IMG/VR virus record: IMGVR_UViG_3300025392_000640
Span: 37,214 to 101,213 of that record
Reading direction: 5' to 3' (one strand)
Length of the DNA: 64,000 nt
DNA from: a virus
Lineage: Duplodnaviria; Heunggongvirae; Uroviricota; Caudoviricetes
A program made the position numbers and the translations under genes. Shown in pieces: positions 18,047 to 57,264 of this stretch. Position 1 is the first letter of the stretch. The number at the start of each line of letters is the position of its first letter. The notes under the pieces are model-generated. The model saw only the letters and a program-made list of their open reading frames with translations, made no database searches and was not told the origin of the DNA.

Positions 18047-19093
18047 TTAGTTATCAATATCTTTTTTAAATGGTTTGCTCCACTTTGGTTTAATCATTTT
18101 CCAAATAGTATCTTCGTATGATTTACCATCCCACATTGAGAACAATATAGAACGATATTCATTATCTTTGATTGCTAATGCAAATTCTTTTTTATCACCA
18201 TTTGATTCACCTTTATAATATTCAAAATCAATAGAGCTTCTGAATTTAATATTTTCAAAATGTGCTTTCAATTCCAATACAGTCATTCTAACCCAATTAT
18301 CAAACTCATCCGGTACTCTATCTAAGAACTCATTTAAGTTTCCATCGGTTCTCAATAATTCCCAAATATCAGTAGTTGAAAAGTTAGTTAATATTCTATG
18401 TAAACGAACATACTCATCACCTTTGATTTTCATTCTCATTCCTCTTTTGAAACGAACAACAAATCCTTCGGCATCATTTGAAATTATTCCTTTTAAAGTT
18501 TTGAAATCAGTTACTCCATCGTATTTTTTAACTACTTCAAATCCTTCACTTTCCATATTTTCAATACTACCTTCAATTCCAATTTCATTATTGTAAACTG
18601 CTAATACAACTAATTTCTCAGCTCCACCATAATCAACAACAATTCTATTTTCAGGGTATATGATTTCAAATAAGTAAGTGTAACCTGGTATCATTCCATA
18701 CTTAGTATTTTCTTTACTCAATAACTCTTTACCTTTGATAGCTTGTTCGGATGTGAAAGAACCACGTGTTGCTATATGCCACTCATCATTATAGAAAAAG
18801 CATATACCCAAGCTACCATCCATTTTTTCAAATACTTCAAATGACTGATTTGGTATTGATTCGGGTGACAATTCCTCATAGTTAAAGAATTTTGGAAATG
18901 GTTTAGCAATTAAATTACCTTCGTTATCTAAAACTAATCCCCTACATTCTAAAGTAATCGGGTCCCACAATTTTTCGTACTGAACACCTCTGCTATAATT
19001 GTATATAGATAAAGGTAAAGTTGGGTGGTCTTGTTTAATCACCCAACCTTTCTCTACATACTGCTTAAGTAATTCAAATTTATCGTATTTCAC
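18047..19093 (-). CDS. RNA ligase (Rnl1/T4 RnlA-like nucleotidyltransferase)
   Basis: Motif I KMDGSL, motif IV EGFVVRF, motif V MKIKG; 348 aa. Confidence 0.75.
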   Translation of the reverse strand: MKYDKFELLKQYVEKGWVIKQDHPTLPLSIYNYSRGVQYEKLWDPITLECRGLVLDNEGNLIAKPFPKFFNYEELSPESIPNQSFEVFEKMDGSLGICFFYNDEWHIATRGSFTSEQAIKGKELLSKENTKYGMIPGYTYLFEIIYPENRIVVDYGGAEKLVVLAVYNNEIGIEGSIENMESEGFEVVKKYDGVTDFKTLKGIISNDAEGFVVRFKRGMRMKIKGDEYVRLHRILTNFSTTDIWELLRTDGNLNEFLDRVPDEFDNWVRMTVLELKAHFENIKFRSSIDFEYYKGESNGDKKEFALAIKDNEYRSILFSMWDGKSYEDTIWKMIKPKWSKPFKKDIDN

Positions 19094-19371
19094 TTCTTTA
19101 TTTTTTTACAATATGTTTTTAATATTTCAATTTCACCATCCATATTTTCTACATGCCAATCATCTCTACCAAGAAATTCTCTTAAGTTTTTATAAGAACT
19201 CAATCCCATTTTTCTATGTGCAGGATGCGAATCTACAAACGCACCATCTAACATATTCCAATGTACTACCGATTTCCATGCAGTACGAGTCTCAATACCA
19301 ATAAACAATTCAACGGTATCGCCGGCATATATTCTATTGCCATACGAATCGTTACATATCATTTTTCTCAT
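19090..19371 (-). CDS. hypothetical protein
   Basis: 93-aa ORF inside the ligase/kinase cassette. Confidence 0.45.
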   Translation of the reverse strand: MRKMICNDSYGNRIYAGDTVELFIGIETRTAWKSVVHWNMLDGAFVDSHPAHRKMGLSSYKNLREFLGRDDWHVENMDGEIEILKTYCKKIKK

Positions 19372-19374
19372 AAC

Positions 19375-19776
19375 TTATAATTTAATTGAGAATCGATTTT
19401 TCATTTCTTCTAACTTATCATCAGGCACTCCATGCTCATTTACACCACCATGTCTATTCTCTACAATTAAACAATAAACTGTATAACCATATGTTTTAGC
19501 TAATGTAAAATAAAAATCCAATTCCCATTCTTGCGTAAATGTATTTGATACTACAATTCTCGGAACAACTTTTTCCATCCAATTCTCAACTACATCGTGA
19601 CACCAATTGTGTGCATGTTTTAATCTACTTGGTTCAAATTTATATTCACCAGTCAATTTATCAACAAAGAACATATCAGCCTCTACATATTGAGGTCCAC
19701 TACCGGATGTTAATGATTTAGCTAATGTGCTTTTACCACTACCAGGTAAACCTCTTAATAAAAATAACTCTTTCAT
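19375..19776 (-). CDS. P-loop NTPase, polynucleotide-kinase-like
   Basis: Walker A LLRGLPGSGKSTLA; 133 aa; flanked by a phosphoesterase and an RNA ligase. Confidence 0.65.
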   Translation of the reverse strand: MKELFLLRGLPGSGKSTLAKSLTSGSGPQYVEADMFFVDKLTGEYKFEPSRLKHAHNWCHDVVENWMEKVVPRIVVSNTFTQEWELDFYFTLAKTYGYTVYCLIVENRHGGVNEHGVPDDKLEEMKNRFSIKL

Positions 19777-19782
19777 AACTTT

Positions 19783-20436
19783 TTATTTATAGTTTTCAAC
19801 AATTTCGTGATGGTCTTTAACGAACAATGATTTTACAGGTCTATTTCTCATTATATGCAACACTTCGCTTAAACCAATTGGATATAACATATTACCATCC
19901 ACACCAACATCCATCATTTTACCTTCTTGTATTCTGATGTTAGAATTGAAGTGAACATGTCCATGCAAATGGATAGCACCTTTAGCCATATTATTCCAAC
20001 TTGCTATTGGAAAGTGCATTAATACAAAGTTAGCTTCACCCATCAATGGAGTTCCAACATTCCACTTTACATTCAATTCAACATATTTGTTTACTGAACT
20101 AAAAAGTGATTGGCAATTATCTCTATTGTTTTCAATGTGATGGTCGTGATTACCAGTTACGATATGTACATTCTTACATATAATTTGGTCTCTAAACTTT
20201 TGTATTTGTTCAAAGCCACCAAACGACCAATCCCCTAAATGAATTAAGATATCATCTTGCTTTACAACTTCATTAATGTTACCAACTAAATGTGAGTTCA
20301 TATACTCTAATGATTTAAACTCCCTAATTGTTGTGGGGTTATTCCATTTTGTTGTTGAACTACAAATGTTAGCATGATTATAATGCGTATCTGATGTGAA
20401 CCATAACTTCTGTCCTTTATTTAATATCAATTTCAT
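19783..20436 (-). CDS. Calcineurin-like metallophosphoesterase (putative 2',3'-phosphatase of repair cassette)
   Basis: DTHYNH, LGDWSFGG, GNHD, HGHVH metallophosphatase motifs. Confidence 0.8.
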   Translation of the reverse strand: MKLILNKGQKLWFTSDTHYNHANICSSTTKWNNPTTIREFKSLEYMNSHLVGNINEVVKQDDILIHLGDWSFGGFEQIQKFRDQIICKNVHIVTGNHDHHIENNRDNCQSLFSSVNKYVELNVKWNVGTPLMGEANFVLMHFPIASWNNMAKGAIHLHGHVHFNSNIRIQEGKMMDVGVDGNMLYPIGLSEVLHIMRNRPVKSLFVKDHHEIVENYK

Positions 20437-38555: not shown

Positions 38556-38589
38556 CAAATATACGAAATTATTTTGAATCCACCAAATT
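38556..38589 (-). promoter_or_regulatory. Bacteroidetes-type promoter for 38229..38534
   Basis: acaaatatacgaaattattttgaatccaccaaat. Confidence 0.55.
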
Positions 38590-39003: not shown

Positions 39004-40514
39004 TATTCTTTAATATATTTAAAAAATTCTTCGTTAGTCATATATTCTTTATGTATCTTACCATATTCCTTTTCCATTAGTTTAGAAAAATAATAAGCTT
39101 TATCCAATTTATCGGCGGTTATTAATTCACGTTCAATCATTTTTTTATCTTTGAGTAAACCTGCCATTTCTAATATATGACACCATATTCCCCACCCACT
39201 CATACCATGCCCATCTTTAAAATCCAACATATTTAATAATCTATGTTTTGATATTTCAATAAGTTCTTTATTATAATCAGTTATTACCATTTCATTTTTA
39301 ATAAATTTCCAAAATGTAGTATCATTTCTACCAGACAAATAGTGCATTTGTAAAAGGTCTCTGGTATCATCAATCATCTTATTTACACCTTCATTATATT
39401 TTCTTTTGCTAATTTCGCATTTTATAGATTCATTTGATTTTAAATAATGATTTATAAAATTAGTAATTCCTATTAAGGATATATGAATAGATGTAGCTTG
39501 TAATGGTTCTAAAAAATGAGAAGCTAATCCAAATGATACAACATTATTATACCAAGTATTTTCATATCTACCAGCTTCAAATTTAATTTCTCTAATTGAA
39601 TCTATTTCTTGTCCTAGTTTTCTTTCTACCTCATCTATTGCTTTGCTTTTTGTTTGAAATCCATCACAATAAACATATCCATTTCCATATCTTTCCTGCA
39701 AAGGTATTTTCCACATCCAACCGGCATTCATTGTTTCTGCTAAAGTTTCAAATCTAACATTCTTAGATGTTATTTCAGTTGAAAATGGTATAGCTGTATT
39801 TACAGGTAAATTTTCTTTATAAGAAATCCATTTATTTTTTGTCTTACCTATTAATATTCTATTAAATCCACTACAATCAAACCACATATCAGCAGAAAGA
39901 TTTTGACCATTTGATAATTTAATATTTTTTACATATTCATTTTCATCAAAGTTTACATCAGTAATTTCACTATCTATTACTTTAACTCCAAACTTTAAAC
40001 AAATATCCTTAAAATATTTACCAACTTCATGTCCGTCAAAATGATATGAATATGTATTATGTCCTAATGTAAGTGCACCAGTTTCTCCTCTTTTTGTTTT
40101 TTTAGAAAATGGTGTAATTTTATTTTCTAATAAATGATATTGTAAAGAAGCCATATCACCTCTACCATTTTTTAATATAGAACCAAAGAATGCTATATCA
40201 ATATGATTGTGGGATGTCATTGATGCATTTATGGGCGAGTATGTATATTTACCATCACCTTTCCAATTTTTTAATTTAATTCCCAATTTAATAGTTCCCT
40301 TAGTTTTTTTAAGCATATCAACTTCATCAACTAAATTTTCAGGCCATTCTTGATTTATAAACCAAGGGAAAGAACCTGTTGAACCTTCACCCGCTCCAAT
40401 GATACCATATTTAGAACTTTCAATAACTGTCACTTCATGCCCTACAGTTTCTTTTATCAAAGTTGCTGCAGCTATCCAACCTGCCGTTCCACCACCTACT
40501 ATAACAATTTTCAT
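39003..40514 (-). CDS. Flavin-dependent (tryptophan-type) halogenase family protein, second copy
   Basis: KIVIVGGGTAGWIAA FAD motif and AGWMWKIPL (WxWxIP). Confidence 0.8.
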   Translation of the reverse strand: MKIVIVGGGTAGWIAAATLIKETVGHEVTVIESSKYGIIGAGEGSTGSFPWFINQEWPENLVDEVDMLKKTKGTIKLGIKLKNWKGDGKYTYSPINASMTSHNHIDIAFFGSILKNGRGDMASLQYHLLENKITPFSKKTKRGETGALTLGHNTYSYHFDGHEVGKYFKDICLKFGVKVIDSEITDVNFDENEYVKNIKLSNGQNLSADMWFDCSGFNRILIGKTKNKWISYKENLPVNTAIPFSTEITSKNVRFETLAETMNAGWMWKIPLQERYGNGYVYCDGFQTKSKAIDEVERKLGQEIDSIREIKFEAGRYENTWYNNVVSFGLASHFLEPLQATSIHISLIGITNFINHYLKSNESIKCEISKRKYNEGVNKMIDDTRDLLQMHYLSGRNDTTFWKFIKNEMVITDYNKELIEISKHRLLNMLDFKDGHGMSGWGIWCHILEMAGLLKDKKMIERELITADKLDKAYYFSKLMEKEYGKIHKEYMTNEEFFKYIKE

Positions 40515-43113: not shown

Positions 43114-43602
43114 CTATAACTTAACTAAATGGTCAGCCGCATAAGTTGCGATTGGACCTAATGATTTATATCTTACTTCATATCCCATACCTTCTACCAA
43201 ACCAACTGCTTGCCTAAACACTTCATTTGATTTATACTTTGGGTCTGGATTAATATCAATATCAATCCATCTTGGTTTTGGAATACCAGCTTCTTTTAAA
43301 AATTCTGCGGTTTCAATAGCGTACCATATTTCATTTAATAAACGAACTGAACGAGTGTATTCTCTTTCGGTTTTCCATCTTCTATATAAAACATGCGCAC
43401 CTTTCCCCTTACGATACAAAGCAACTACTACCGCATAGGTTGTTTTATCCGAATGATTTTGCGAATCACATCCAATTAGGATTTCAACATTGTGGTTTTC
43501 ATTTTCTTCCATGTACTTTTGGACATAAGGAACTAATTCTAATTCCTCTTTGTCATACAATCTTTTGTATTTCATAATAAGGGTTTTGTTGTTGTACCCC
43601 AA
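43114..43602 (-). CDS. YkuK/DUF458-like RNase H-fold protein
   Basis: ILIGCDSQNHSDKTTYAVVVALYRKGKGAH resembles the YkuK family core. Confidence 0.45.
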   Translation of the reverse strand: MGYNNKTLIMKYKRLYDKEELELVPYVQKYMEENENHNVEILIGCDSQNHSDKTTYAVVVALYRKGKGAHVLYRRWKTEREYTRSVRLLNEIWYAIETAEFLKEAGIPKPRWIDIDINPDPKYKSNEVFRQAVGLVEGMGYEVRYKSLGPIATYAADHLVKL

Positions 43603-43675
43603 AAGAGACTCGAACTCTTACATCTTACGATACCGGCTTCTAAGACCGGTGTGGCTACCATTACACCATCGGGGC
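43595..43675 (-). tRNA. tRNA-Leu (anticodon UAG)
   Basis: Hand-folded: acceptor GCCCCGA/TTGGGGT, anticodon loop CTTAGAA, long variable arm, T-loop GTTCGAGTC. Confidence 0.7.
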
Positions 43676-43690
43676 TATTTAAAAGAACTA

Positions 43691-43770
43691 CTGCTGTTAG
43701 AGCAGGATTCGAACCATGCAAAGGGAGATTCGGAAAGTAACACAATGCTTGCAAGCTGGTGGTCAACCCC
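43691..43770 (-). ncRNA. tRNA-like element with canonical GGTTCGAATCC T-loop motif but no foldable cloverleaf (pseudo-tRNA?)
   Basis: ggattcgaacc at 43706-43716; 3' hairpin CTGCTCTAACAGCAG plus U-rich tail; no acceptor pairing found. Confidence 0.3.
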
Positions 43771-43844
43771 ATATTACTTTTCTATTTCTTAATCCCTGCC
43801 CACGAGACGAGTGGGTGTGTTTGCCGAAGTCATAACTGAGATGA

Positions 43845-44069
43845 CTAATTTTCACCATCTAACAATTTATTATCTTTATTAATGTTAAATGTTGCATTAT
43901 GAAAGATTCTGATTTGGTCACTACGATAGTGCCTAACTATACCACCTTCACACAATACAACACACCAAATATCATTTTCCAACATCCCACTATCGGTAAC
44001 ATAAATAGCGTAACCATCTTTGTTACCCTCAACTACAACGGGTATTGGCTTTTGAAATTCTAACATCAT
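43845..44069 (-). CDS. hypothetical protein embedded in tRNA region
   Basis: 74-aa ORF. Confidence 0.4.
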   Translation of the reverse strand: MMLEFQKPIPVVVEGNKDGYAIYVTDSGMLENDIWCVVLCEGGIVRHYRSDQIRIFHNATFNINKDNKLLDGEN

Positions 44070-44082
44070 AATAGATAATTTG

Positions 44083-44170
44083 CGGAGAGTCAGGGATTCG
44101 AACCCCAGATACCGTTTCCAGTATGACGGTTTTCAAGACCGTTCCATTCAACCACTCTGGCAACTCTCCG
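44083..44170 (-). tRNA. tRNA-Ser (UGA)
   Basis: Acceptor GGAGAGT/ACTCTCC, anticodon loop CTTGAAA, long variable arm, T-loop GGTTCGAATCC. Confidence 0.8.
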
Positions 44171-44178
44171 TTTTTATA

Positions 44179-44436
44179 CTAATAGATATTATCTTCCTTA
44201 GAAATCCTAAAATCTATACTACTTTGCCTTCTTCTAGCTTCTTCTGCTTCTTTAACCCATCTAATCCAAGTTAAAGCAACATCAATAGGTGCTAAAATCC
44301 AAGCCATAACAATAACCATAATAGTATCTAACTCTGGTGATTGTGAAGTTACACTACCATCATATCTTTTATTCAAATTTTTAAATAGCTGATAAAAACA
44401 ATAGATAACACAAATAATGTAATAACCAATAAACAT
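44179..44436 (-). CDS. small membrane protein
   Basis: Track ORF 44179..44460 trimmed to the internal Met so the start lies downstream of the promoter. Confidence 0.4.
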   Translation of the reverse strand: MFIGYYIICVIYCFYQLFKNLNKRYDGSVTSQSPELDTIMVIVMAWILAPIDVALTWIRWVKEAEEARRRQSSIDFRISKEDNIY

Positions 44437-44456
44437 AACTTTCTTTTTTAATTTTA

Positions 44457-44490
44457 TCAAAGATACGATAATATTTTCACATTACCAAAT
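44457..44490 (-). promoter_or_regulatory. Bacteroidetes-type promoter
   Basis: caaagatacgataatattttcacattaccaaat. Confidence 0.55.
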
Positions 44491-44497
44491 CTTTTTG

Positions 44498-44568
44498 TTC
44501 CCCCTCAAGGATTCGAACCTCAACTATATGGACCAAAACCACATGTACTACCGTTATACTAAAGGGGA
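44498..44568 (-). tRNA. tRNA-Gln (UUG)
   Basis: U1-A72 acceptor TCCCCTT/AGGGGGA, anticodon loop TTTTGGT. Confidence 0.8.
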
Positions 44569-44709
44569 GTGTCTCAAGCATTCTACTTCCCGCAGTGCGA
44601 AATTGTATCTTACTTAGCCCATCGCTAGCGGTATGGGTACTTGAGTGTGTGAATGAAAAACATCTATTCTTCTTGCGGCCTGTTCACAATGGCCCACTTA
44701 TCTTTATCG

Positions 44710-44782
44710 AGCAGCGAAAGAGATTCGAACTCTCTCGTCCAGCTTGGAAGGCTGGCGTGCTACCATTGAACACCACCGCTGC
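44710..44782 (-). tRNA. tRNA-Gly (UCC)
   Basis: Acceptor GCAGCGG/TCGCTGC, anticodon loop CTTCCAA. Confidence 0.8.
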
Positions 44783-44890
44783 TTTTGTGTAGGTTTTTCT
44801 TTCACATTTAGCCCAAACACCAGTGAATCAATGTTTGGATTTTGAACCGAGTGCCCAATAAGGGGCTTTACAACCTACAAACTCTGTCAG

Positions 44891-44963
44891 AGCGGAAGAC
44901 CAGGCTCGAACTGGCCACCTATGCCTTGGCAAGGCATCGCTCTACCGAATGAGCTACTTCCGC
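44891..44963 (-). tRNA. tRNA-Gly (GCC)
   Basis: Acceptor GCGGAAG/CTTCCGC, anticodon loop TTGCCAA. Confidence 0.85.
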
Positions 44964-44971
44964 AATTTTTG

Positions 44972-45045
44972 TGGGAAAGACTGGGTTCGAACCAGTGACC
45001 TCAAAATTATGAGTTTTTTGCTCTAACCAACTGAGCTACATTCCC
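44972..45045 (-). tRNA. tRNA with CAU anticodon (elongator Met or Ile2/lysidine)
   Basis: Acceptor GGGAATG/CTTTCCC with one U-U mismatch, anticodon loop CTCATAA, all-AU anticodon stem. Confidence 0.7.
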
Positions 45046-45162
45046 AATAAAGATTATATTCATTCTGCCGTTAGTAGTCTATTTACCATTAACTACCACG
45101 TGTATCTAGTCAGACTTCTTTGGGGTTGGTATCGTTCCCTTCATATAATCTTTAAATAAGGT

Positions 45163-45252
45163 GCCGGTGGTGAGATTGGTTACTCACACGAAGTCCCTTT
45201 CGGATGAATCGCCCTTTCTAGTTCGGATGCGTCTAAATTCCGCCACACCGGC
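45163..45252 (-). ncRNA. tRNA-like structured element (perfect 7-bp terminal helix GCCGGTG/CACCGGC, non-canonical T-loop TAACCAAT)
   Basis: Hand fold: terminal helix, D-like hairpin GCG-GAATTTAGA-CGC, hairpin CGAAAGGGACTTCG, T-like stem GTGAG/CTCAC; no standard anticodon arm. Confidence 0.3.
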
Positions 45253-45269
45253 ATATATCTTTTAATCTT

Positions 45270-45569
45270 TTAATCTTTTAATTCATTAATAAGACTATCT
45301 ATCATATCATCACCTAAAGAAATTTGATGTAGGTTTTTTATTTTTAAATAGTTTTCTAAATACATTGATGCGGTTACTAACTTGTCACCTTTTTGTATCT
45401 CTATTTTAATAATACCGCTTGTGTTTGTTGTTTCGGATGGTGTGATTTTTTTAGTCAAACTTTCAATTTTTTCGGCTATCGTATCCAAATCATTTTTATC
45501 TATTTCAACAGTATTAACATCATCTCCATATCCATAATCTATGAGTATGTTTTTAATTTTTTCTTTCAT
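45270..45569 (-). CDS. hypothetical protein
   Basis: Track ORF 45270..45608 overlaps tRNA-Ala; start moved to the internal Met (MKEKIKN). Confidence 0.4.
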   Translation of the reverse strand: MKEKIKNILIDYGYGDDVNTVEIDKNDLDTIAEKIESLTKKITPSETTNTSGIIKIEIQKGDKLVTASMYLENYLKIKNLHQISLGDDMIDSLINELKD

Positions 45570-45584
45570 AACTTTTTGTTTAGT

Positions 45585-45657
45585 GGAGAATGAGGGAGTC
45601 GAACCCACGACCTTCTGAATGCAAATCAGACGCTCTAGCCAACTGAGCTAATTCCCC
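45585..45657 (-). tRNA. tRNA-Ala (UGC)
   Basis: Acceptor GGGGAAT (G3-U70 wobble present), anticodon loop TTTGCAT. Confidence 0.8.
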
Positions 45658-45667
45658 ATATTTATCG

Positions 45668-45753
45668 TGCCTCAAGTGGGAGTCGAACCCACACGAACTT
45701 TTCGGTTCACAGGATTTTAAGTCCTGCGTGGCTACCAATTACACCATCGAGGC
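45668..45753 (-). tRNA. tRNA-Leu (UAA)
   Basis: Acceptor GCCTCGA/TTGAGGC, anticodon loop CTTAAAA, long variable arm. Confidence 0.8.
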
Positions 45754-45759
45754 AGTTTG

Positions 45760-45831
45760 TAGTCCGGCGTGGAATCGAACCACGAACCAAATCTTAGAAG
45801 GATTTTGTTATATCCATTTAACTACCAGACC
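45760..45831 (-). tRNA. tRNA-Arg (UCU)
   Basis: Anticodon loop CTTCTAA, T-arm CGTGG-TTCGATT-CCACG. Confidence 0.8.
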
Positions 45832-46027
45832 AAAAAATAGATGAGAGGGTTATTACGTCTAATAACTCCAAAGTTTCTACCGGCCGTTTATGGAATATGC
45901 GCACTGACCATAAACTAAGCTTTCGTCTGCATCTCATCTCAAAAAACATCAAATGGGATTCCAACCCATACTTTCGGGCAATTACTCCCGATGTGCTAAC
46001 GTCAGTTACACTATTGATATTTTTATG

Positions 46028-46101
46028 CGGAACGTAGGGAACTCGAATCCCTGACCTCTACAGTGACAGTGTAGCATTCTAACCAACTGAACTAACGCTC
46101 C
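46028..46101 (-). tRNA. tRNA-Asp (GUC)
   Basis: Acceptor GGAGCGT/ACGTTCC, anticodon loop CTGTCAC. Confidence 0.8.
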
Positions 46102-46176
46102 GTAATTACTAATTCATCTTTATTTGCACCACCACGTCATGCGTAGGTTGACATATACCTCAATGAATTAGTTCTG

Positions 46177-46250
46177 AGCCTAAGGTGAGATTCGAACTCA
46201 CGACTCCGAAATTACAAATTTCGTACTCTGGCCAACTGAGTTACTCAGGC
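46177..46250 (-). tRNA. tRNA-Thr (UGU)
   Basis: Acceptor GCCTGAG/CTTAGGC, anticodon loop TTTGTAA. Confidence 0.8.
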
Positions 46251-46258
46251 TTATATTG

Positions 46259-46330
46259 TAGTCCCGAGCGGAATCGAACCGCCCTTTTCAGGATGAAAAC
46301 CTAACGTCCTAACCGATAGACGACGGGACC
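46259..46330 (-). tRNA. tRNA-Glu (UUC)
   Basis: Anticodon loop TTTTCAT, T-arm GGCGG-TTCGATT-CCGCT. Confidence 0.8.
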
Positions 46331-46350
46331 ATATTATTTAAAAGAACATT

Positions 46351-46384
46351 ACAAATATACGATAATTTTTTCAAACTACCAAAT
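46351..46384 (-). promoter_or_regulatory. Bacteroidetes-type promoter immediately upstream of tRNA-Glu and the downstream tRNA block
   Basis: acaaatatacgataattttttcaaactaccaaat. Confidence 0.55.
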
Positions 46385-46393
46385 TTGTTTTTG

Positions 46394-46482
46394 CGGAGAG
46401 CGGAGTATTCGAAACTCGCCCAACTTAATGGGTTCTCGTTTAGCAAACGAGCGGGGAACACCTTTGCCCTCCTTCACTCTCC
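46394..46482 (-). tRNA. tRNA-Ser (GCU)
   Basis: Acceptor GGAGAGT/GCTCTCC, anticodon loop TTGCTAA, long variable arm. Confidence 0.75.
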
Positions 46483-46484
46483 AA

Positions 46485-46559
46485 TGGTGTGACCGAAGAG
46501 AATCGAACTCTTACATAAAGTGCCACAAACTTTCGCCCTACCATTAGGCTACGGCCACC
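46485..46559 (-). tRNA. tRNA-His (GUG) with encoded G-1 and 3' CCA
   Basis: GGTGGCCG... 5' end (extra G-1), anticodon loop TTGTGGC, 3' ...CGGTCACACCA. Confidence 0.8.
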
Positions 46560-46565
46560 ATGTTG

Positions 46566-46640
46566 TAGCGTGAACAAGATTCGAACTTGTGTCTGAGCCT
46601 TATGAGAGCTCCGTAAGAAAACCAACTCTACCATCACGCT
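46566..46640 (-). tRNA. tRNA with CAU anticodon (Met/Ile2), second copy
   Basis: A1-U72 acceptor AGCGTGA/TCACGCT, anticodon loop CTCATAA. Confidence 0.75.
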
Positions 46641-46707
46641 ATTTGTGGAATTGAACCACCTTCCCAGCTTAATGCCGGGCGATACATCCAGTATCCTTCA
46701 CCGGTTG
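46641..46707 (-). ncRNA. Truncated tRNA-like fragment (T-arm plus anticodon-like hairpin, no 3' acceptor strand)
   Basis: GGTGGTTCAATTCCAC T-arm abuts the 5' end of the adjacent tRNA; hairpin CCCGG-CATTAAG-CTGGG. Confidence 0.3.
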
Positions 46708-46778
46708 AGGCGTGTATTGGAATCGAACCAATCTAAAAGGATTTGCAGTCCTCCACCTAGCCACTCGGACAACTCGCC
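46708..46778 (-). tRNA. tRNA-Cys (GCA)
   Basis: Acceptor GGCGAGT (one A-A mismatch), anticodon arm GAGGA-CTGCAAA-TCCTT, T-arm ATTGG-TTCGATT-CCAAT; overall similar to bacterial tRNA-Cys. Confidence 0.65.
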
Positions 46779-47321
46779 TTATCGGTTTAGTTTATTAATA
46801 CATTCATCTATCTTATCTCTCAATCTTCCGCCACGTCCAAAATCACCATCAACTTGTACATGCCTCCACATTGGAATACGATGTTTCATCCATTTGAACT
46901 CTGCACTCAATTTCATATCATCAATTGCAATCCAGTTACTAATCTTATTATCCTTAACCCATTTTACAATCTGATGTGCTCTCTCAAACTCTAAGGATGG
47001 ATTACTCATCTTATTCCAAATTCCCAGCTTTCTACTACTCATATGTGTTGTGATATCAATCAATGGAGCATGAATACCAAACTCAATAAATGTATCACTC
47101 ATTTGCCTAAGAGTAAAGTGCAACTTCCAATCTGATGATAATACTAATTCTGCATTAGTCTTGTCACAAATTTCTTGCAATGCTTCACAATCCTCTTTTA
47201 CTAATGGGTAAGGTATTGTAAACTCATTCATAGTATTTTCGTTTATCTTCACTTTACCATCATCCCATGTTGCCCAAGCTAATGGCCCATCAACATCAAT
47301 AAAAATAATTTTCTTTCTCAT
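46779..47321 (-). CDS. HAD-superfamily phosphatase-like protein (embedded in tRNA cluster)
   Basis: N-terminal IIFIDVDGPL (HAD motif I) and WIAIDD (motif IV-like). Confidence 0.55.
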   Translation of the reverse strand: MRKKIIFIDVDGPLAWATWDDGKVKINENTMNEFTIPYPLVKEDCEALQEICDKTNAELVLSSDWKLHFTLRQMSDTFIEFGIHAPLIDITTHMSSRKLGIWNKMSNPSLEFERAHQIVKWVKDNKISNWIAIDDMKLSAEFKWMKHRIPMWRHVQVDGDFGRGGRLRDKIDECINKLNR

Positions 47322-47347
47322 AACTTTAATTTTTAATTTTTTAATTG

Positions 47348-47421
47348 TACTCTCTAAGAGACTCGAACTCCTAACCCCTTCGTCCGTAGCGAAGTGCTCT
47401 AATCCATTGAGCTAAGAGAGC
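47348..47421 (-). tRNA. tRNA-Arg (ACG)
   Basis: Anticodon arm CTTCG-CTACGGA-CGAAG. Confidence 0.8.
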
Positions 47422-47427
47422 TATTTG

Positions 47428-47496
47428 CACGCAGTGAAGGAATCGAACCCTCTCGTAAAGATTTGGAGTCTTTTTAGCTACCATAGCCTACCACGT
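47428..47496 (-). tRNA. tRNA-Trp (CCA)
   Basis: A1-U72 acceptor ACGTGGT, anticodon arm AAAGA-CTCCAAA-TCTTT; short D region. Confidence 0.65.
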
Positions 47497-47503
47497 ATGT
47501 TTG

Positions 47504-47577
47504 TTGGAATAGCGAGATTCGAACTTGCCACCTTCTCGGTATCAGCGAGATGCTCTAACCAAATGAGCTATATTCCA
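47504..47577 (-). tRNA. tRNA-Ile (GAU)
   Basis: Acceptor TGGAATA/TATTCCA, anticodon loop CTGATAC. Confidence 0.75.
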
Positions 47578-47587
47578 ATTTTTAAAG

Positions 47588-47662
47588 TAGGGTAAAGAGG
47601 ACTCGAACCTCCACGATGTCTTGCTCCCAAAGCAAGCGGCCTAGCCATTGGCCCATTACCCT
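47588..47662 (-). tRNA. tRNA-Pro (UGG)
   Basis: Acceptor AGGGTAA/TTACCCT, anticodon loop TTTGGGA. Confidence 0.8.
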
Positions 47663-47668
47663 ATATTG

Positions 47669-47742
47669 TTCCCCCGGTAGGATTCGAACCTACAACCCAC
47701 CGGGTAAAAGCCGGTTACTCTAGCCAATTGAGCTACAAGGGA
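47669..47742 (-). tRNA. tRNA-Lys (UUU)
   Basis: Anticodon arm ACCGG-CTTTTAC-CCGGT, T-arm GTAGG-TTCGAAT-CCTAC. Confidence 0.8.
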
Positions 47743-47792
47743 TTCTTTTGTCACTCTTGTCACTTTCCATAATCATTGTTTTTAATTGTTAG

Positions 47793-47864
47793 TGGTAATG
47801 AGTGGAATCGAACCACTGCTACTAAGTCTTCAGCCTAGCGCTCTACCAACTGAGCTACATCACC
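47793..47864 (-). tRNA. tRNA-Phe (GAA)
   Basis: Acceptor GGTGATG/CATTACC, anticodon loop CTGAAGA. Confidence 0.85.
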
Positions 47865-47928
47865 TTGCCTTTTTTAGCGTTTTTGAATAGAACGCAAGGA
47901 CAGTACGACCTGAAAACTATTAGGGTTG

Positions 47929-48009
47929 TGGGAGTAAGAAGACTCGAACTTCTGAAGCCGATGGCGTTTGATTTACAGTCAAATGTGATTGCCGCTACAC
48001 GATACTCCC
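47929..48009 (-). tRNA. tRNA-Tyr (GUA)
   Basis: Acceptor GGGAGTA/TACTCCC, anticodon loop CTGTAAA, long variable arm. Confidence 0.8.
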
Positions 48010-48014
48010 AATTG

Positions 48015-48086
48015 TAGAAGTGGAGAATTATGATATCCCGTCCTCTTGGATGTAAGCCAAGCGCTCTCCCTCTGAGCTACACTTCT
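48015..48086 (-). tRNA. tRNA-Val (UAC) with non-canonical T-loop
   Basis: Perfect acceptor AGAAGTG/CACTTCT, D-arm GCTC-AGAGGGA-GAGC, anticodon loop CTTACAT; T-loop ATCATAA lacks TTC. Confidence 0.6.
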
Positions 48087-48114
48087 ATTTTCCACAATGT
48101 CAAAGAACCAAATG

Positions 48115-48187
48115 CGTTAGTGATAGGATTCGAACCTATGGCCACTTGATTAACAGTCAAGAGCTCTACCAGCTGAGCTACACCAAC
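48115..48187 (-). tRNA. tRNA-Asn (GUU)
   Basis: Acceptor GTTGGTG/CACTAAC, anticodon loop CTGTTAA. Confidence 0.85.
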
Positions 48188-48199
48188 ATTTATTTACAA

Positions 48200-48247
48200 A
48201 CATCCCAAAAACAAAAAACCTCTAACTTTTTTATCGGTTAGAGGTCT
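48200..48247 (-). terminator. Rho-independent terminator (minus strand) just upstream of the tRNA cluster
   Basis: Hairpin cctctaac/gttagagg; minus strand has stem followed by TTTTTTGTTTTTGGG. Confidence 0.55.
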
Positions 48248-48261
48248 TTCAATATTGTTAT

Positions 48262-48430
48262 AAAATTTTACACTTTATCCCCAATTATCATCCTCTAACT
48301 TCGTACTAATATAATCCACTTTGCCTAAATTTGCTTGTGCCGGATTACTTATCGTACTAAACATACGAATCCCACACCATTCATTTCTCAATGTAGGTTG
48401 CGAACAATTTGTATGTAGTGTTAAAGTTTT
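48262..48430 (-). CDS. small hypothetical protein (below track threshold)
   Basis: ~55-codon minus ORF MKTLTLHTNCSQPTLRNEW... ending before the terminator. Confidence 0.3.
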
Positions 48431-48574
48431 CATCTTTGTTATGTTAATAAGTATATAATAATTTTATTTTCAGTTTTTTTAATTCTTATAAGCCTAAATC
48501 GGGAAGTATATTGCTATACTCCCCTCTCTAAGTTGTAATAAAAATTAAGATATGAAACGAACAACCTTTCAGTT

Positions 48575-48665
48575 GTTAGTAGAGCGGGACCAATGATTCG
48601 AACATCATCCTCTCACCTGGTCGGTAAGTGTGCTACCATTACACCAATTCCGCTTATGTGGAAAG
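48575..48665 (-). ncRNA. tRNA-like/pseudo-tRNA (T-arm TGATG-TTCGAAT-CATTG, acceptor with mismatch, aberrant anticodon loop)
   Basis: Hand fold; a degenerate partial copy of its 5' half (gtgtgctac.attacac) recurs at 48915-48950. Confidence 0.3.
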
Positions 48666-49902
48666 TTTTTCGAGTTGGAGAGGAACTTTCCGAGCGCTGC
48701 CGAAACCCCATAATACATTTTCGTATTGATTACTTTGCTTTAAGCCTTTTACAGCTTTGGCGAAATCCAATCTAAACCACATTAGGCTTCCTACTTTTAA
48801 GTTTCTAGTTTAAGTCCCAAACCAACTTGCTCTCACTAATGCGAACACAATGTTAAACAGACTACGATGAGCGGTTAAAGGTTCTGCCCCCCTCCTCTCC
48901 ACTGGAATGTGAAGTGTGCTACTATTACACTAAAACCGCTTATAAATGGATGAGAATACTCCAATGGGTGATTCAGCTTTAGAAGGATTATTGAGTTCCC
49001 TTCGTTTCCACTTCCTTTTGAGAAGTACCAAATCAATGCAGGTCATTATAGATAACCACTCTTAAAGTTGTAACTTACTCACCTATTACTCCCCTTATTC
49101 AATCCTGCCGAACTGATTCAACCTTGCGGGTCTATAAGCTTTTCGTAGATATCACATCCGCCTTGCGAGCGTTTGTGGCTGGGAACAACTCCCAACTATG
49201 TATGCACCTTTCGGTTACAACTGATGAACACTTTTGCTTTATGTTTATTTATAGTTTTTTACGCCGAAGTAAAAATAAAGTTTTGGTTCGTAGATTGATT
49301 CAGGTAGCGGTTCATCACCAGCTCTGTCCCCTTTTGAAGAACAGAATACTATACTACCCAATGCGTTATCTCAACGCCATACTTCAAGTCATCTTCATCA
49401 ATAGGGATTGGTGTCCCACATTGAAGGATAGTAACGGCACCACCCGTACACAGTCTTACCTTACGTCTTTTCAGATAGCTTGGTGTTAAGACCACTTTGG
49501 TATTGAATCACGCAATAGTAAAAAGGGATTAGCTTTTTATATCTTACATAAATCCTATGAGTTATTCTTATTGCTGTTCCCAGCTCAACTAAGGAATCTA
49601 CAGTTCCCTAGTCATCCCAACTCGTCAATGATAGTGTTACCCCCACCTACAAAGCCAGAATGATATCTCACTTGCCTACTCAAGCTCATAAGTCCACAGA
49701 CCTATAAACCGCAGAATGTTTAACCAAACATCCCACTTTATCCTACTTTCGTAGTTTATTTAACGACCATAGGCGGCCGTTTGTTCACTATATAACACAA
49801 GGTTATTATGTGAAGTATTTTTAATAATTTAAAGAACTAATTTGATTCTCAATTTTGTTTTCTGGTCAAACCAATCAACTACTTTATTTTTGAATCTTAG
49901 TA

Positions 49903-50337
49903 AAGATACGAAGAATATTTTATTCCACCAAATCTTTTTTTATTTTTGTTGAAACATTTTCGGCTGTGTTTACTTACACCATTTATACTTCCTACTTCTG
50001 AATCAACTTAGTAAAGATACGATAAATTTTTCAATCTACCAAATCTTTTTTTAACTTATTGATAATCAACAAGTTAGTTAAGATATCCGGCTTTCTTCCC
50101 TATTGGATAGGTCACTCAATCGGTTTTATTATTGATGGCTTCAACCTTAACTTTGTTAAAGATACGATAAATATTTCAATCTACCAAATCTTTTTTTGTT
50201 GCGGGGGATGGATTCGAACCACCGACCTAAAGGTTATGAGCCTTCCGAGCTACCTCTGCTCTACCCCACGATATATAAAGAACTTTTATCTCTTTTGATT
50301 TAATCAAAGATACGAATAAATTCCGAATCTACCAAAT
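49903..50337 (-). promoter_or_regulatory. Array of four tandem promoter copies (49903-49933, 50013-50044, 50157-50189, 50305-50337) interleaved with palindromic elements and a tRNA
   Basis: taaagatacgaagaat...ccaccaaat; taaagatacgataaat...ctaccaaat (twice); caaagatacgaataaa...ctaccaaat. Confidence 0.55.
50199..50270 (-). tRNA. Initiator-type tRNA-fMet (CAU)
   Basis: C1-A72 mismatch; CGTGGGGTAGAGCAG...CTCATAA...GGTCGGTGGTTCGAATCCATCCCCCGCAA closely parallels bacterial tRNA-fMet. Confidence 0.75.
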
Positions 50338-50431
50338 CTTTTTTAAGTCATTGAAAATCAATGAGTTATAAACATAGGATTTATAAGTATATGTAAATAT
50401 ACAAAAAGTATCCGAATTTACAAAATTTATT

Positions 50432-51133
50432 TTACTTATTTTTTGAAAGCATTGCTACCAATGATGTAGCTGCTTTTTTAACAGGACTTTTATCATCATA
50501 TTTCAAAGCGGATGTCACTTTGATATCTTTACCTGTAATTGGATTTCTAACTGTTTTGTTAGCTATATCCTTTGGTAACGATGATGCTAATTTAGCCATA
50601 TCAGGTTGTTTTGCTTTTTGCCCAACACCTCTCTTAAATGTAAATGTACTCTTAGGTCCACTTTTCATTTTAGAATAAGCCTGTTGAATTGTATCAGGAT
50701 GCATTTTACCCATATTTTCGGTATGGCCATCTCTATATAATAAGAAAGCGTTTCCCTTTGTTTGTTCACCAGCATATAATACTGAATCTTGTCCGTATTT
50801 ATTACCAAGTTCATGTGCATCTTTAATACTGATATTAGGAACAAAGAAAGATTCTTCGATACTATCTTTTAATTTTTCTTCAGGACATTGTGCATAATTC
50901 ATATTAGAATCCGTACATTCTCTCCATCTTCCTTCAACTTTAAAGAAACCAAGTCCTTTACCTCTAAGGTCAGATTCCAATTTCTTATTAAGTTCTCTAT
51001 TTTCCTTTGGAGTGTTCAAATATCTAAATGCAGTCATCATCGCCCAACTTGTAGTATTCTTTTGCTGTTGTACGTGTTGATATACTCTACTTAAAGAGGC
51101 TTCATCTAAATTATGTATTTTACAATTTCCCAT
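50432..51133 (-). CDS. hypothetical protein
   Basis: 233-aa ORF. Confidence 0.5.
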   Translation of the reverse strand: MGNCKIHNLDEASLSRVYQHVQQQKNTTSWAMMTAFRYLNTPKENRELNKKLESDLRGKGLGFFKVEGRWRECTDSNMNYAQCPEEKLKDSIEESFFVPNISIKDAHELGNKYGQDSVLYAGEQTKGNAFLLYRDGHTENMGKMHPDTIQQAYSKMKSGPKSTFTFKRGVGQKAKQPDMAKLASSLPKDIANKTVRNPITGKDIKVTSALKYDDKSPVKKAATSLVAMLSKNK

Positions 51134-51345: not shown

Positions 51346-51379
51346 ACAAATATACGAAAAATATAGGAATTTACCAAAT
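51346..51379 (-). promoter_or_regulatory. Bacteroidetes-type promoter for 51120..51341
   Basis: acaaatatacgaaaaatataggaatttaccaaat. Confidence 0.55.
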
Positions 51380-51702: not shown

Positions 51703-52029
51703 TTAATTTAATGATTTTTGTAACTTTTGTATCTCCGCACATTTTTCATATGCTTCAATCTCAATCATATATTCCATCAACCTATCTAAAGTTTGGTCTA
51801 TATCTTCTTTTGAAATACTAAAATCAACAATCAATCCCGGTTGTACATCTTTTAACTTTGCTGGTTCTTTTGGTTTAGTAACTAACTTAAGAATTATTTT
51901 ATTTTTTGATTTACTTTCAATAAAATCAAAAACATTATCATAGATACTATCCATTATAATACCTCTATTCTCCTCTGCCCAATCTCTAATCGGAGTACCT
52001 GGTTCTATGTATATCTTTTTAGCTGCCAA
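51703..52029 (-). CDS. hypothetical protein
   Basis: 108-aa ORF. Confidence 0.45.
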   Translation of the reverse strand: MAAKKIYIEPGTPIRDWAEENRGIIMDSIYDNVFDFIESKSKNKIILKLVTKPKEPAKLKDVQPGLIVDFSISKEDIDQTLDRLMEYMIEIEAYEKCAEIQKLQKSLN

Positions 52030-54621: not shown

Positions 54622-54653
54622 CAAAGATACGAAAAATATCTGATATTACCAAA
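54622..54653 (-). promoter_or_regulatory. Bacteroidetes-type promoter (variant -33)
   Basis: caaagatacgaaaaatatctgatattaccaaag. Confidence 0.5.
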
Positions 54654-57160: not shown

Positions 57161-57264
57161 AATAAAAAACTCCCTAATTTTATTATTAGAGAGTCTTTTT
57201 TTAAGTGTGTTTTAGATGTATTCCTTTTTTCTGATTTTGTTTTCTTGTAGCTTTAGCCATTCGA

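Follow-up and report, generated by a model that had tools for sequence, protein, structure and literature searches.

The minus strand of the 64-kb window analysed here (the whole stretch of DNA, positions 37,214 to 101,213 of the IMG/VR virus record IMGVR_UViG_3300025392_000640) carries, at 43594-50270, 26 tRNA genes for all 20 amino acids within 6.7 kb; in number, density and isotype coverage this interval is a tRNA array. It is likely the array, or 'RNA island', of a large uncultivated phage, whose minimal 20-amino-acid set is tuned to the phage's own A/T-ending codons and would sustain its translation. For more than 50 years it has been asked why phages carry tRNAs, and the locus offers a clean and comparatively rich example: a complete minimal decoding set is here physically joined to GOLLD RNA, to predicted RNA-repair enzymes and to tRNA-derived RNAs that do not decode, in an order kept across dozens of contigs. 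The most novel content of the interval lies in these non-decoders, above all in a giant tRNA-Asp-like RNA.

Content of the tRNA array

tRNA genes were called with ARAGORN (default settings and relaxed, -ps80) and with the Rfam model RF00005 (gathering threshold 29 bits). At default settings ARAGORN places 25 tRNA genes between 43594 and 50270, all on the minus strand, and none in the other ~57 kb of the window; RF00005 gives 25 matches at its gathering threshold within the same bounds, with scores of 32.7-73.9 bits. The two tools agree on 24 tRNAs, and it is these that are called canonical here. A 7-nt anticodon loop with U33 and a purine at position 37, a GTTCRA T loop and a 7-bp acceptor stem are found together in 24 genes, and the Rfam scores of the 24 lie at 45-74 bits, save for tRNA-Trp at 32.7 bits (Table 1).

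An earlier note on this DNA had listed 26 tRNAs with their anticodons, all on the minus strand, and had called them canonical. ARAGORN and Rfam combined recover every one of them, with the anticodons as listed, and the covariance model, which might have rejected most of the loci, instead matches 25 times; the word canonical holds for 24 of the 26 and fails for tRNA-Val(UAC) and tRNA-Ser(GCU). The further statement that the anticodons are mostly of the U34 type is too strong, as U34 is found in 12 of the 26, which is a plurality only; nine have G34, four C34 and one A34. The genes of the main block do stand as close together as had been described, 11 of the 24 gaps measuring 9 nt or less and many spacers 2-9 nt. 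tRNA-His has the templated G-1 attributed to it and is the only tRNA with an encoded CCA; nearly all the others end in N73-C74 followed by A-rich sequence. The two protein genes reported as embedded in the cluster, a HAD gene and a 74-aa open reading frame (ORF), are both present. Further calls made by relaxed ARAGORN were treated as false positives, namely an Ile(tat) inside an RNase H-like ORF, an Arg(tcg) antisense to tRNA-Ser, a Thr(tgt) overlapping tRNA-Glu and a promoter, and an antisense '??(tt)'.

Codon usage and decoding capacity

Codon counts come from 108 non-overlapping ORFs of the minus strand, 16,019 codons in all. The phage uses the standard code, with long ORFs spanning 48.7 kb of one strand; the GC content of the genome is ~30%, and third codon positions are T in 39%, A in 39%, G in 14% and C in 8%. 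Wherever a U34 tRNA serves a box, the codon ending in A is used most, except in Gly, where GGT leads and a GCC tRNA is also present. The proposed fit of the anticodons, with their U34/G34 bias, to an AT-rich genome is thus borne out by the codon counts.

How much of the code the set covers depends on the reading assumed for U34. Under strict wobble it reads 48 of the 61 sense codons (89.8% of usage), with cmo5U-type reading 54 (98.5%), and with four-way reading by U34 and one CAU tRNA taken as a lysidine tRNA-Ile2, 60 (99.99%). Under four-way reading CGG is the sole orphan codon, and it is used twice in the 16,019 codons. A decoder for AUA is needed, since ATA makes up 521 of them. tRNA calls and codon counts together support the view that the set is near-complete for all 20 amino acids. 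It is also minimal, in that each codon box or half-box has a single tRNA: the set comprises 23 elongator anticodons, plus an initiator and a second CAU tRNA of the elongator type.

Atypical members of the set

tRNA-Val(UAC) has the aberrant T loop ATCATAA that had been read from it by eye, in an arm GGGAT-ATCATAA-TTCTC without GTTCRA; its relatives (homologous loci on other IMG/VR contigs, which carry L numbers in what follows) have a canonical tRNA-Val at this position. tRNA-Ser(GCU) keeps the loop TTGCTAA, a long variable arm and G73, has a T stem of 4 bp and an odd D arm, and gives no match in Rfam even at E<=1; in its place the relatives have a Ser(GCU) or Ser(ACU) of canonical form. Ser(ACU) is the one that follows tRNA-His in L029, L036, L038, L043, L045 and L046, and outside tRNA-Arg(ACG) a tRNA with A34 is seldom met in bacteria. 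In the window, Ser is most often encoded by AGU.

In tRNA-His, G-1 stands opposite A73 in the window, L038, L045, L050 and one copy in L039, and opposite C73 in most relatives; the CCA is encoded in some of the relatives' copies and absent from others. Of the three CAU tRNAs, the one preceding GOLLD (CAU #1) had been likened to the bacterial initiator. It has the C1xA72 mismatch (5' C, A at 72) and A11:U24 (D stem GAGC/GCTC), which supports the likeness; the run of three anticodon-stem G:C pairs is present only in two parts (G30-C40 and G31-C39, with A-U at 29-41), and there the likeness falls short. All three pairs are found in several relatives, in which a tRNA of the initiator type likewise precedes GOLLD on its upstream side. 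For the two elongator-type CAU tRNAs, the comparison of classes across relatives leaves both Met and Ile2 possible. In the class that follows tRNA-Ala, most relatives have GGACC as the acceptor sequence (C4-G69, C5-G68), and the window has GGGAATG (A4-U69, A5-U68); in E. coli tRNA-Ile2, C4-G69 and C5-G68 are determinants for TilS and IleRS. One CAU class is present in some members of the clade and absent from others.

Relatives, promoters and host

Megablast of the island against 50,697 GenBank phage records returns single-tRNA matches to Lak and Rhizobium phages only, and no close relative. Searches of IMG/VR with the HAD and RNase H-like proteins, on the other hand, yield 58 loci on contigs of up to 410 kb. 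About 25 of the 58 share the order of the array, which runs Met, GOLLD, Asn, Val, Tyr, Phe, Lys, Pro, Ile, Trp, Arg, Cys, Met, His in its first half and Ser, (Leu), Glu, Thr, Asp, Arg, Leu, Ala, Met, Gly, Gly, Gln, Ser, Leu in its second; the complete loci L026, L027, L028, L038 and L046 have 26-27 tRNAs with the same anticodons, and about 25 further loci repeat the order and the anticodon set in part.

A regular-expression scan of the window finds the motif TTTGGTR-N16-GTATMTTTG at 14 sites on the coding strand and at a single site on the opposite one, with three of the 14 inside the island. The motif agrees with the Bacteroidota promoter consensus, which is TTTG at -33 and TAnnTTTG at -7; sites of the sigma-70 type are not enriched in the window (29, for 23.5 +/- 4.3 expected). 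Three further copies, ending in TTTA, stand ahead of GOLLD (element K), and after each come ~50-100 nt in which conservation is partial. In a genome collection of 185,579 species the giant RNA has only five matches, all on short contigs of Bacteroidota metagenome-assembled genomes (MAGs): two of Flectobacillus and one each of Algoriphagus, Bacteroidia and 'uncultured Bacteroidetes'. The host probably belongs to the freshwater Bacteroidota. Phage-like genes of the window encode an Rnl1-type ligase, an endolysin-like and an endonuclease VII-like protein, a homing endonuclease (52019-52612) and a SAM lyase.

A phosphatase gene in the array and repair genes outside it

The HAD gene inside the array belongs to HAD_SAK_2, which Pfam describes as 'HAD domain in Swiss Army Knife RNA repair proteins'. 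It has 399 homologues, all PF18143, and the DxD motif (D9 and D11 in FIDVDGPL) is invariant among 35 of them; the protein has no sequence match in the PDB and none in NCBIfam. Its AlphaFold 2 model has a pLDDT (predicted local distance difference test) of 88. The matches found for this model with Foldseek are all weak, with T4 PNKP (2ia5) among the top ones (E ~0.03-0.3, template modelling (TM) score ~0.41-0.46) and MDP-1 and Scp1 also present, so that the predicted fold weakly resembles capless HAD phosphatases, T4 PNKP included. The gene is embedded in tRNA arrays in L001, L002 and L006-L013, that is, in several subclades. By blastn, a segment of ~730 bp with tRNA-Arg(ACG) and the HAD gene (46720-47452, minus strand) is 92-94% identical to L001:9872-10604; L001 is otherwise without megablast-level similarity to the window and has a different tRNA order, a combination that points to a recent lateral transfer of a cassette of tRNA and HAD gene between phage lineages.

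Outside the island, at 18047..20436 on the minus strand, lies a candidate RNA-repair cassette, in which an Rnl1-family ligase is adjoined by a kinase and a metallophosphoesterase, with a PHROGs match of the cassette to phrog_547 (5e-41) besides that of the ligase to phrog_562; elsewhere a protein with a cREC_REC, or 'cyclic-phosphate processing receiver', domain adjoins a second metallophosphoesterase. By analogy with T4 Pnkp and Rnl1, and with the hypothesis put forward in PMC10264068, the predicted activities of the ligase, kinase, phosphoesterases and cREC_REC protein would make up a toolkit for healing tRNAs cut by anticodon nucleases.

A giant tRNA-Asp-like RNA

GOLLD RNA and tRNA-like elements that do not decode share the island with the tRNAs, and the earlier note made no mention of them. 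The largest of the tRNA-like elements is the giant RNA, which is 150-180 nt long across its family (for example L008:18698-18856 and L027:7241-7413; its loci are among L001-L183). Its 7-bp acceptor stem always reads UGUnnnn/nnnnACA and is followed by G73-C74, with U8-G9 next to the 5' strand; the D arm has a 3-bp stem and a GG-containing loop with an optional inserted hairpin, the anticodon-like arm a 5-bp stem and a 7-nt loop YNGUCYC, and the T arm the canonical form GGTTCGAnTCC. The unusual part is the variable arm, which measures ~86 nt and is branched, with five helices and invariant internal loops.

A pattern scan of IMG/VR gives at least 120 stretches with this RNA. The distinct copies number at least 98, and the acceptor stem occurs in 24 versions, every one of them paired. 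Structure statistics were obtained on 64 diverse copies: RNAalifold gives 45 pairs, and compensatory changes are seen in 30; the paired share of cells is 98.6%, against 40-52% with slid partners; and the covariation score is 0.52, against 0.06-0.11 in slid controls, a value reached by none of 500 shuffles. Scored with the family's covariance model, true members reach 107-167 bits and ordinary tRNAs no more than 49 bits; in the window the model finds one copy. The giant RNA is real, widespread and strongly covarying.

Its likeness to tRNA-Asp is close. When the variable arm is replaced in silico by 5 nt and the D-loop insert is cut, ARAGORN calls tRNA-Asp(GTC) in 62 of the 64 copies; in their native form it calls none. 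G2, C71, G73 and G34-U35-C36 are invariant and C38 is present in 62 of 64, and the identity elements of E. coli AspRS are G73, G2:C71, G34, U35, C36 and C38. As a decoder the RNA fails, since position 33 varies among U, C and A, 63 of 64 copies have a pyrimidine at position 37, and the variable arm is of the length given above; a normal tRNA-Asp coexists with it in the array. There is always one giant RNA per locus, usually at the downstream edge of the array and often right after tRNA-Ser. Its only frequent neighbour is the 93-aa ORF: in 31 of 37 loci a homologue of this ORF lies upstream and has its end within 600 nt; no fixed association is seen with the HAD gene or the RNase H-like gene.

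No family of Rfam 15 matches the giant RNA (E<=1, 43300-50500), and a literature search found no description that fits it. In a 2023 IMG/VR screen, the candidate 'DNAVirus_1850' overlaps a tRNA-Asp call at one of its 27 sites and may be the giant RNA. An assignment as transfer-messenger RNA (tmRNA) was rejected: ARAGORN calls no tmRNA, Rfam gives no match, and U1-A72, G2-C71 and U3-A70 are invariant, so that there is no G3:U70. The model of the giant RNA also matches tRNA-like sequences of 100-130 nt in related arrays, at 22-49 bits, which suggests that these arrays may hold other expanded tRNA-like RNAs.

We regard it as an evenly balanced proposition that these phages have repurposed tRNA scaffolds into non-decoding RNAs, with the giant RNA as an undescribed class of tRNA mimic and the pseudo-tRNA-Gly elements described below as processing handles. 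Three roles would fit the anatomy of the giant RNA: it could be charged with aspartate for use off the ribosome; it could act as a decoy for proteins that read the G34-U35 loop, such as nucleases of the colicin-E5 type or tRNA-guanine transglycosylase; or its variable arm could dock a protein or GOLLD. If new, it is a widespread addition to the short list of natural tRNA mimics, of a size that suits direct biochemistry.

GOLLD RNA and its pseudo-tRNAs

The conserved 3' domain of GOLLD lies at 48947-49361 on the minus strand (RF02032, 304.8 bits for a gathering threshold of 150, E 2.8e-86, model positions 1-416 of 416); in relatives the conservation reaches 5'-wards to ~49838, and 49838-48948 is 82% identical to L034 by blastn. 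The RNA is found in a phage context beside tRNAs, between the initiator tRNA and the main tRNA block. GOLLD is known to be encoded by phages and prophages, 'often near tRNA islands', in one studied example downstream of a Met-tRNA, and its linker sometimes contains tRNAs (PMC12286853); in mycobacterial tRNA arrays it occurs together with a pseudo-tRNA and an HNH endonuclease (PMC6582537).

Two pseudo-tRNAs lie in this part of the island, 'tl1' directly 3' of GOLLD and an element called as Gly(ACC) by ARAGORN. Both derive from tRNA-Gly(UCC), with the anticodon stem stretched to 6 bp and covarying among relatives (for tl1, in L044 and L028) and the loop reduced to 4-6 nt. The Gly(ACC)-like element has no Rfam match at E<=1 and was ruled out as a decoder, its homologues having the 6-bp stem and loops of 4-6 nt. 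The two elements are probably processing handles, at which RNase P and RNase Z would set the 3' end of GOLLD. A 52-aa ORF lies between them and the main block, in a region that is 77-83% conserved in L027, L034 and L028; the hairpin and T-run that follow it look like a terminator by eye, and the terminator scan did not list the hairpin.

What the array is for

In the reading that we prefer, the genes of the island would be transcribed codirectionally with the flanking protein genes, from the phage's own promoters of the Bacteroidota -33/-7 type, and host RNase P, with a 3' nuclease, would cut the transcripts into tRNAs. CCA would be added after transcription, since it is not encoded except on tRNA-His; host enzymes (TilS and those acting on U34) would modify the tRNAs and host synthetases would charge them. 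The array would then keep phage translation going when the host tRNA pool is unfit, depleted or cleaved, and the replacement of tRNAs would be paired with their repair, through the Rnl1-type ligase, the P-loop kinase, the phosphoesterases, the cyclic-phosphate module and the HAD phosphatase in the array. The 'cleaved' component is favoured because the HAD_SAK_2 gene lies inside the array and repair genes are found elsewhere in the window.

Several points weigh against this reading. Strict wobble leaves the set at only 48 of 61 codons. The set is not autonomous, as it needs host synthetases, TilS, a CCA-adding enzyme and modification of U34, and its completeness also depends on host RNase P and RNase Z. 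tRNA-Val and tRNA-Ser(GCU) are degraded here and perhaps weak or dead, in which case GUN and AGY would fall to the host; in tRNA-His, G-1 faces A73 rather than C73, so that its retention is uncertain. The fold match of the HAD protein to T4 PNKP is weak (E ~0.03, TM ~0.45), and the link between repair genes and array rests on domain names and mostly on presence in the same genome, not on adjacency.

Phage tRNAs have been proposed as a counter to host anticodon nucleases (PMC10264068), and the array might serve counter-defence only, supplying nuclease-resistant replacements for host tRNAs cut by such enzymes, with the codon fit incidental. The RNA-repair genes, with a HAD_SAK_2 phosphatase within the array itself, speak for this, as does the fact that the hypothesis is already published for other phages (PMC10264068); tRNA-cleaving defences are described in the literature. 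Known anticodon nucleases, however, hit few isoacceptors, whereas the set replaces all, and the anticodon loops of the canonical tRNAs look ordinary. Counter-defence as the whole explanation is possible and rather doubtful.

Pure codon compensation, by which the tRNAs would serve A/U-ending codons poorly decoded by the host and have no role in defence or shut-off, draws on the codon data: wherever U34 or C34 is possible the tRNA has U34, and the A-ending codon prevails in the U34-served boxes except Gly, in a genome of ~30% GC. Yet the set is complete rather than selective, with Met, Trp and an initiator among its members besides tRNAs for codons which every host has to read well; the RNA ligase, kinase and phosphoesterase repair genes are left unexplained. 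The mismatch to be compensated may moreover be small, because the Bacteroidota linked to such phages are often low in GC themselves. We consider this account, taken alone, unlikely. Codon compensation and counter-defence are not mutually exclusive, and the translation-sustaining array proposed here leaves room for both.

That the array is a decaying or selfish one, a horizontally moving cassette that hitch-hikes and in which many genes are becoming pseudogenes, is improbable. Some of the island does look this way: tRNA-Val and tRNA-Ser(GCU), canonical in relatives, are degraded, several pseudo-tRNAs are present, the segment with tRNA-Arg and the HAD gene appears recently transferred from or to an otherwise dissimilar contig, and the homing endonuclease gene lies close by. 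Against this, 24 tRNAs score well (Trp being the low one), their order and anticodons are kept across diverged contigs whose protein genes share only 65-80% DNA identity, and even the pseudo-tRNAs retain covarying stems. A bacterial chromosome or plasmid array, such as the GOLLD-containing tRNA arrays known from mycobacterial chromosomes (PMC6582537), can be dismissed as very improbable, even though no capsid or terminase gene was identified among the ~57 window ORFs scanned, in view of the close relatives, which are all IMG/VR viral contigs of 130-410 kb, of the T4 Rnl1-like ligase and the other phage-like genes named above, of the placement of all genes on one strand with one repeated promoter type, and of the five short MAG contigs that are all the genome collection yields for the giant RNA.

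The clade itself offers variation with which supply and defence could be told apart, in the decay of tRNA-Val and tRNA-Ser, the replacement of Ser(GCU) by Ser(ACU), C73 or A73 in tRNA-His, and the presence or absence of a CAU class.

Other RNAs and genes of the window

Several spacers of the island are better conserved than nearby protein genes, and five of them (B, D, E2, F and G) reach up to 96% identity and have predicted or covarying hairpins. Element B is more conserved than the protein genes adjoining it. E2 has homologues in L031, L027 and L046; the tRNA-like fold next to it (45944-46021) is unique to the window. Element D was ruled out as a class II tRNA, as relatives keep its 3' 75 nt only and the acceptor pairing is confined to the window and L102. 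For element C (44783-44889) there are no usable homologues. Within 43300-50500 the conserved spacers have no Rfam match at E<=1, and weak matches to YrlA and to a plastid UTR in the same search were taken as echoes of tRNA.

Among the protein genes, the last codons of the 74-aa ORF overlap the 5' acceptor strand of the giant RNA. The RNase H-like gene, which borders the island here, lies inside the tRNA array in most relatives (L026-L058); its product has no sequence match in the PDB and no NCBIfam match. Auxiliary genes on the minus strand encode a GTP cyclohydrolase I, a heme oxygenase, a ferredoxin-dependent bilin reductase, a NifU-like protein, two tryptophan-halogenase-like proteins, a SET-domain protein and a SAM lyase-family protein. 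GTP cyclohydrolase I catalyses the first step of 7-deazaguanine and queuosine synthesis.

Table 1. Features of the island and of the rest of the window, with their positions (those in related loci carry the L number of the locus) and the evidence for each.
Feature	Position	Strand	Evidence
tRNA CAU #1, initiator-type	50198..50270	-	ARAGORN; Rfam 59.2 bits
tRNA-Asn(GUU)	48114..48187	-	ARAGORN; Rfam 73.9 bits
tRNA-Val(UAC), degenerate T arm	48015..48086	-	Rfam 51.9 bits only; ARAGORN (default, -ps80) silent
tRNA-Tyr(GUA)	47928..48009	-	ARAGORN; Rfam 56.5 bits
tRNA-Phe(GAA)	47792..47864	-	ARAGORN; Rfam 71.7 bits
tRNA-Lys(UUU)	47668..47742	-	ARAGORN; Rfam 65.1 bits
tRNA-Pro(UGG)	47587..47662	-	ARAGORN; Rfam 59.3 bits
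tRNA-Ile(GAU)	47503..47577	-	ARAGORN; Rfam 64.3 bits
tRNA-Trp(CCA), D stem of 3 bp, scored lowest of the set by Rfam	47427..47496	-	ARAGORN; Rfam 32.7 bits
tRNA-Arg(ACG)	47347..47421	-	ARAGORN; Rfam 60.4 bits
HAD-family phosphatase, HAD_SAK_2 (PF18143)	46779..47321	-	Pfam 71.8 bits (cut-off 27.5), 9.6e-20
tRNA-Cys(GCA)	46707..46778	-	ARAGORN; Rfam 46.8 bits
Element G, acceptor-less tRNA-like RNA, three hairpins incl. T arm GTGG-TTCAATT-CCAC	46641..46706	-	fold; covariation in L042, L033, L041, L155, L149
tRNA CAU #2, elongator-type (A1-U72), Met or Ile2	46565..46640	-	ARAGORN; Rfam 55.4 bits
tRNA-His(GUG), G-1 at 46559, A73, encoded CCA	46485..46558	-	ARAGORN; Rfam 66.2 bits
tRNA-Ser(GCU), atypical	46393..46482	-	ARAGORN -ps80 only; Rfam none
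Bacteroidota-type promoter TTTGGTAG-N16-GTATATTTG, upstream of tRNA-Glu	46352..46383	-	regex scan
tRNA-Glu(UUC)	46258..46330	-	ARAGORN; Rfam 54.1 bits
tRNA-Thr(UGU)	46176..46250	-	ARAGORN; Rfam 63.6 bits
Hairpin RNA F, 74 nt, between Asp and Thr	46102..46175	-	fold; 77-96% conserved in 6 loci
tRNA-Asp(GUC), canonical	46027..46101	-	ARAGORN; Rfam 64.6 bits
Spacer with E2 (45832-45940) and tRNA-like fold (45944-46021, 6/8-nt anticodon loop)	45832..46026	-	fold; ARAGORN -ps80
tRNA-Arg(UCU)	45759..45831	-	ARAGORN; Rfam 59.3 bits
tRNA-Leu(UAA)	45667..45753	-	ARAGORN; Rfam 55.5 bits
tRNA-Ala(UGC)	45583..45657	-	ARAGORN; Rfam 68.6 bits
99-aa ORF, without family match	45270..45569	-	ORF list
Small RNA D, 3' ~75 nt conserved	45155..45255	-	conservation, fold
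tRNA CAU #3, elongator-type (G1-C72), Met or Ile2	44971..45045	-	ARAGORN; Rfam 67.2 bits
tRNA-Gly(GCC)	44890..44963	-	ARAGORN; Rfam 63.4 bits
tRNA-Gly(UCC)	44709..44782	-	ARAGORN; Rfam 45.1 bits
Small RNA B	44572..44681	-	95.6% identical to L031, L027; found in 10 loci; fold
tRNA-Gln(UUG)	44497..44568	-	ARAGORN; Rfam 55.4 bits
Bacteroidota-type promoter upstream of 93-aa ORF	44458..44489	-	regex scan
93-aa ORF, putative small membrane protein (hydrophobic stretches, by eye)	44179..44460	-	ORF list
tRNA-Ser(UGA)	44082..44169	-	ARAGORN; Rfam 51.8 bits
74-aa ORF, conserved in a subset of relatives	43845..44069	-	ORF list
Giant tRNA-Asp-like RNA, 173 nt	43692..43864	-	alignments, covariation, covariance model 157 bits
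tRNA-Leu(UAG), last tRNA of the island	43594..43675	-	ARAGORN; Rfam 50.9 bits
RNase H-like protein (PF04308), immediately downstream of the island	43114..43602	-	Pfam 7e-23
Bacteroidota-type promoter upstream of initiator tRNA	50305..50336	-	regex scan
Three further promoter copies ending TTTA, ahead of GOLLD (element K)	~50157-50197, 50010-50054, 49900-49946	-	sequence, repeats
Pseudo-tRNA tl1, directly 3' of GOLLD, 6-bp anticodon stem, 6-nt loop AUUCCA	48870..48939	-	Rfam tRNA 22 bits, below threshold
Pseudo-tRNA Gly(ACC), G33, A5xC68 mismatch, 6-bp anticodon stem, 5-nt loop	48582..48653	-	ARAGORN only
52-aa ORF, then hairpin and T-run (~48215-48250), terminator-like by eye	48275..48433	-	ORF list
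Promoter-like motifs, first seven of 14	60408-60439, 57131-57162, 54622-54653, 51347-51378, 50305-50336, 46352-46383, 44458-44489	-	regex scan
Promoter-like motifs, other seven	38556-38587, 30493-30524, 29274-29305, 26525-26556, 16946-16977, 10872-10903, 2064-2095	-	regex scan
Rnl1-family RNA ligase	18047-19093	-	PF09511 3.8e-16; phrog_562 2e-72
AAA_33 P-loop kinase (PF13671)	19375-19776	-	Pfam 1e-12
Metallophosphoesterase (PF00149)	19783-20436	-	Pfam
cREC_REC domain protein (PF20274)	25270-25734	-	Pfam 5.7e-23
Second metallophosphoesterase (PF00149)	25734-26525	-	Pfam 1.3e-10
Auxiliary genes, ordered as they are in the text	62641-63267, 53244-53783, 52628-53254, 58294-58704, 39003-40514, 11686-13173, 38569-39003, 50432-51133	-	
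Intermediate-score tRNA-like sequences	L053-L055:11720-11827; L012:9283-9406; L039:6340-6471; L029:1298-1411; L006:955-1057		giant-RNA covariance model

Comparison with known systems

The island belongs to a known kind, the GOLLD-associated phage tRNA array, because the literature describes GOLLD near tRNA islands and in mycobacterial arrays. The arrays described there (Weinberg 2009; Morgado & Vicente 2018/2020; Kretsch 2025, PMC12286853; PMC6582537) are likewise dense and confined to one strand, with more than 20 tRNAs for ~20 amino acids; they and the island alike have GOLLD within the array, directly after a Met-type tRNA and beside a pseudo-tRNA, with a homing endonuclease near. The differences lie in the host, which is Lactobacillales or Mycobacterium for the known arrays and by inference Bacteroidota here; in the strictly minimal set of one tRNA per box; in the interleaved conserved RNAs, the giant RNA among them; and in the HAD_SAK_2 and RNase H-like genes in the array.

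Further large tRNA complements are those of KVP40, T5 and the Lak phages. Huge phages carry up to 67 tRNAs together with genes for tRNA ligation (Al-Shayeb 2020, PMC7162821). The phage of the window shares with these huge or jumbo phages (PMC7162821) a large genome, tens of tRNAs and putative tRNA repair genes; the tRNAs of the huge phages are distinct from those of the host, and modification genes are present there too. Unlike in the huge phages, inspection of the 64 kb revealed no synthetase, no translation factor and no suppressor tRNA.

In organisation the array also resembles that of T4, where tRNA genes are co-transcribed with stable non-tRNA RNAs ('species 1/2') that have tRNA-like ends. 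T4 repairs RNA with Pnkp and Rnl1, and the window too has an Rnl1-family ligase with a predicted kinase and phosphatase; T4, however, has eight tRNAs and a single Pnkp, whereas the window has 26 tRNAs and separate kinase and phosphatase proteins (AAA_33, metallophosphoesterase, HAD).

The giant RNA, finally, compares with the known tRNA mimics and variants (tmRNA, YrlA, class II tRNAs and allo-tRNAs; PMC5389517) in keeping the acceptor, the T arm, a GG-containing D arm and an anticodon-like arm of 5 bp and 7 nt. YrlA is permuted, whereas the giant RNA is not, its ends falling in the acceptor stem; class II tRNAs have their extra material in the variable region, as the giant RNA does, in an arm of 10-25 nt, against the branched ~86 nt found here.

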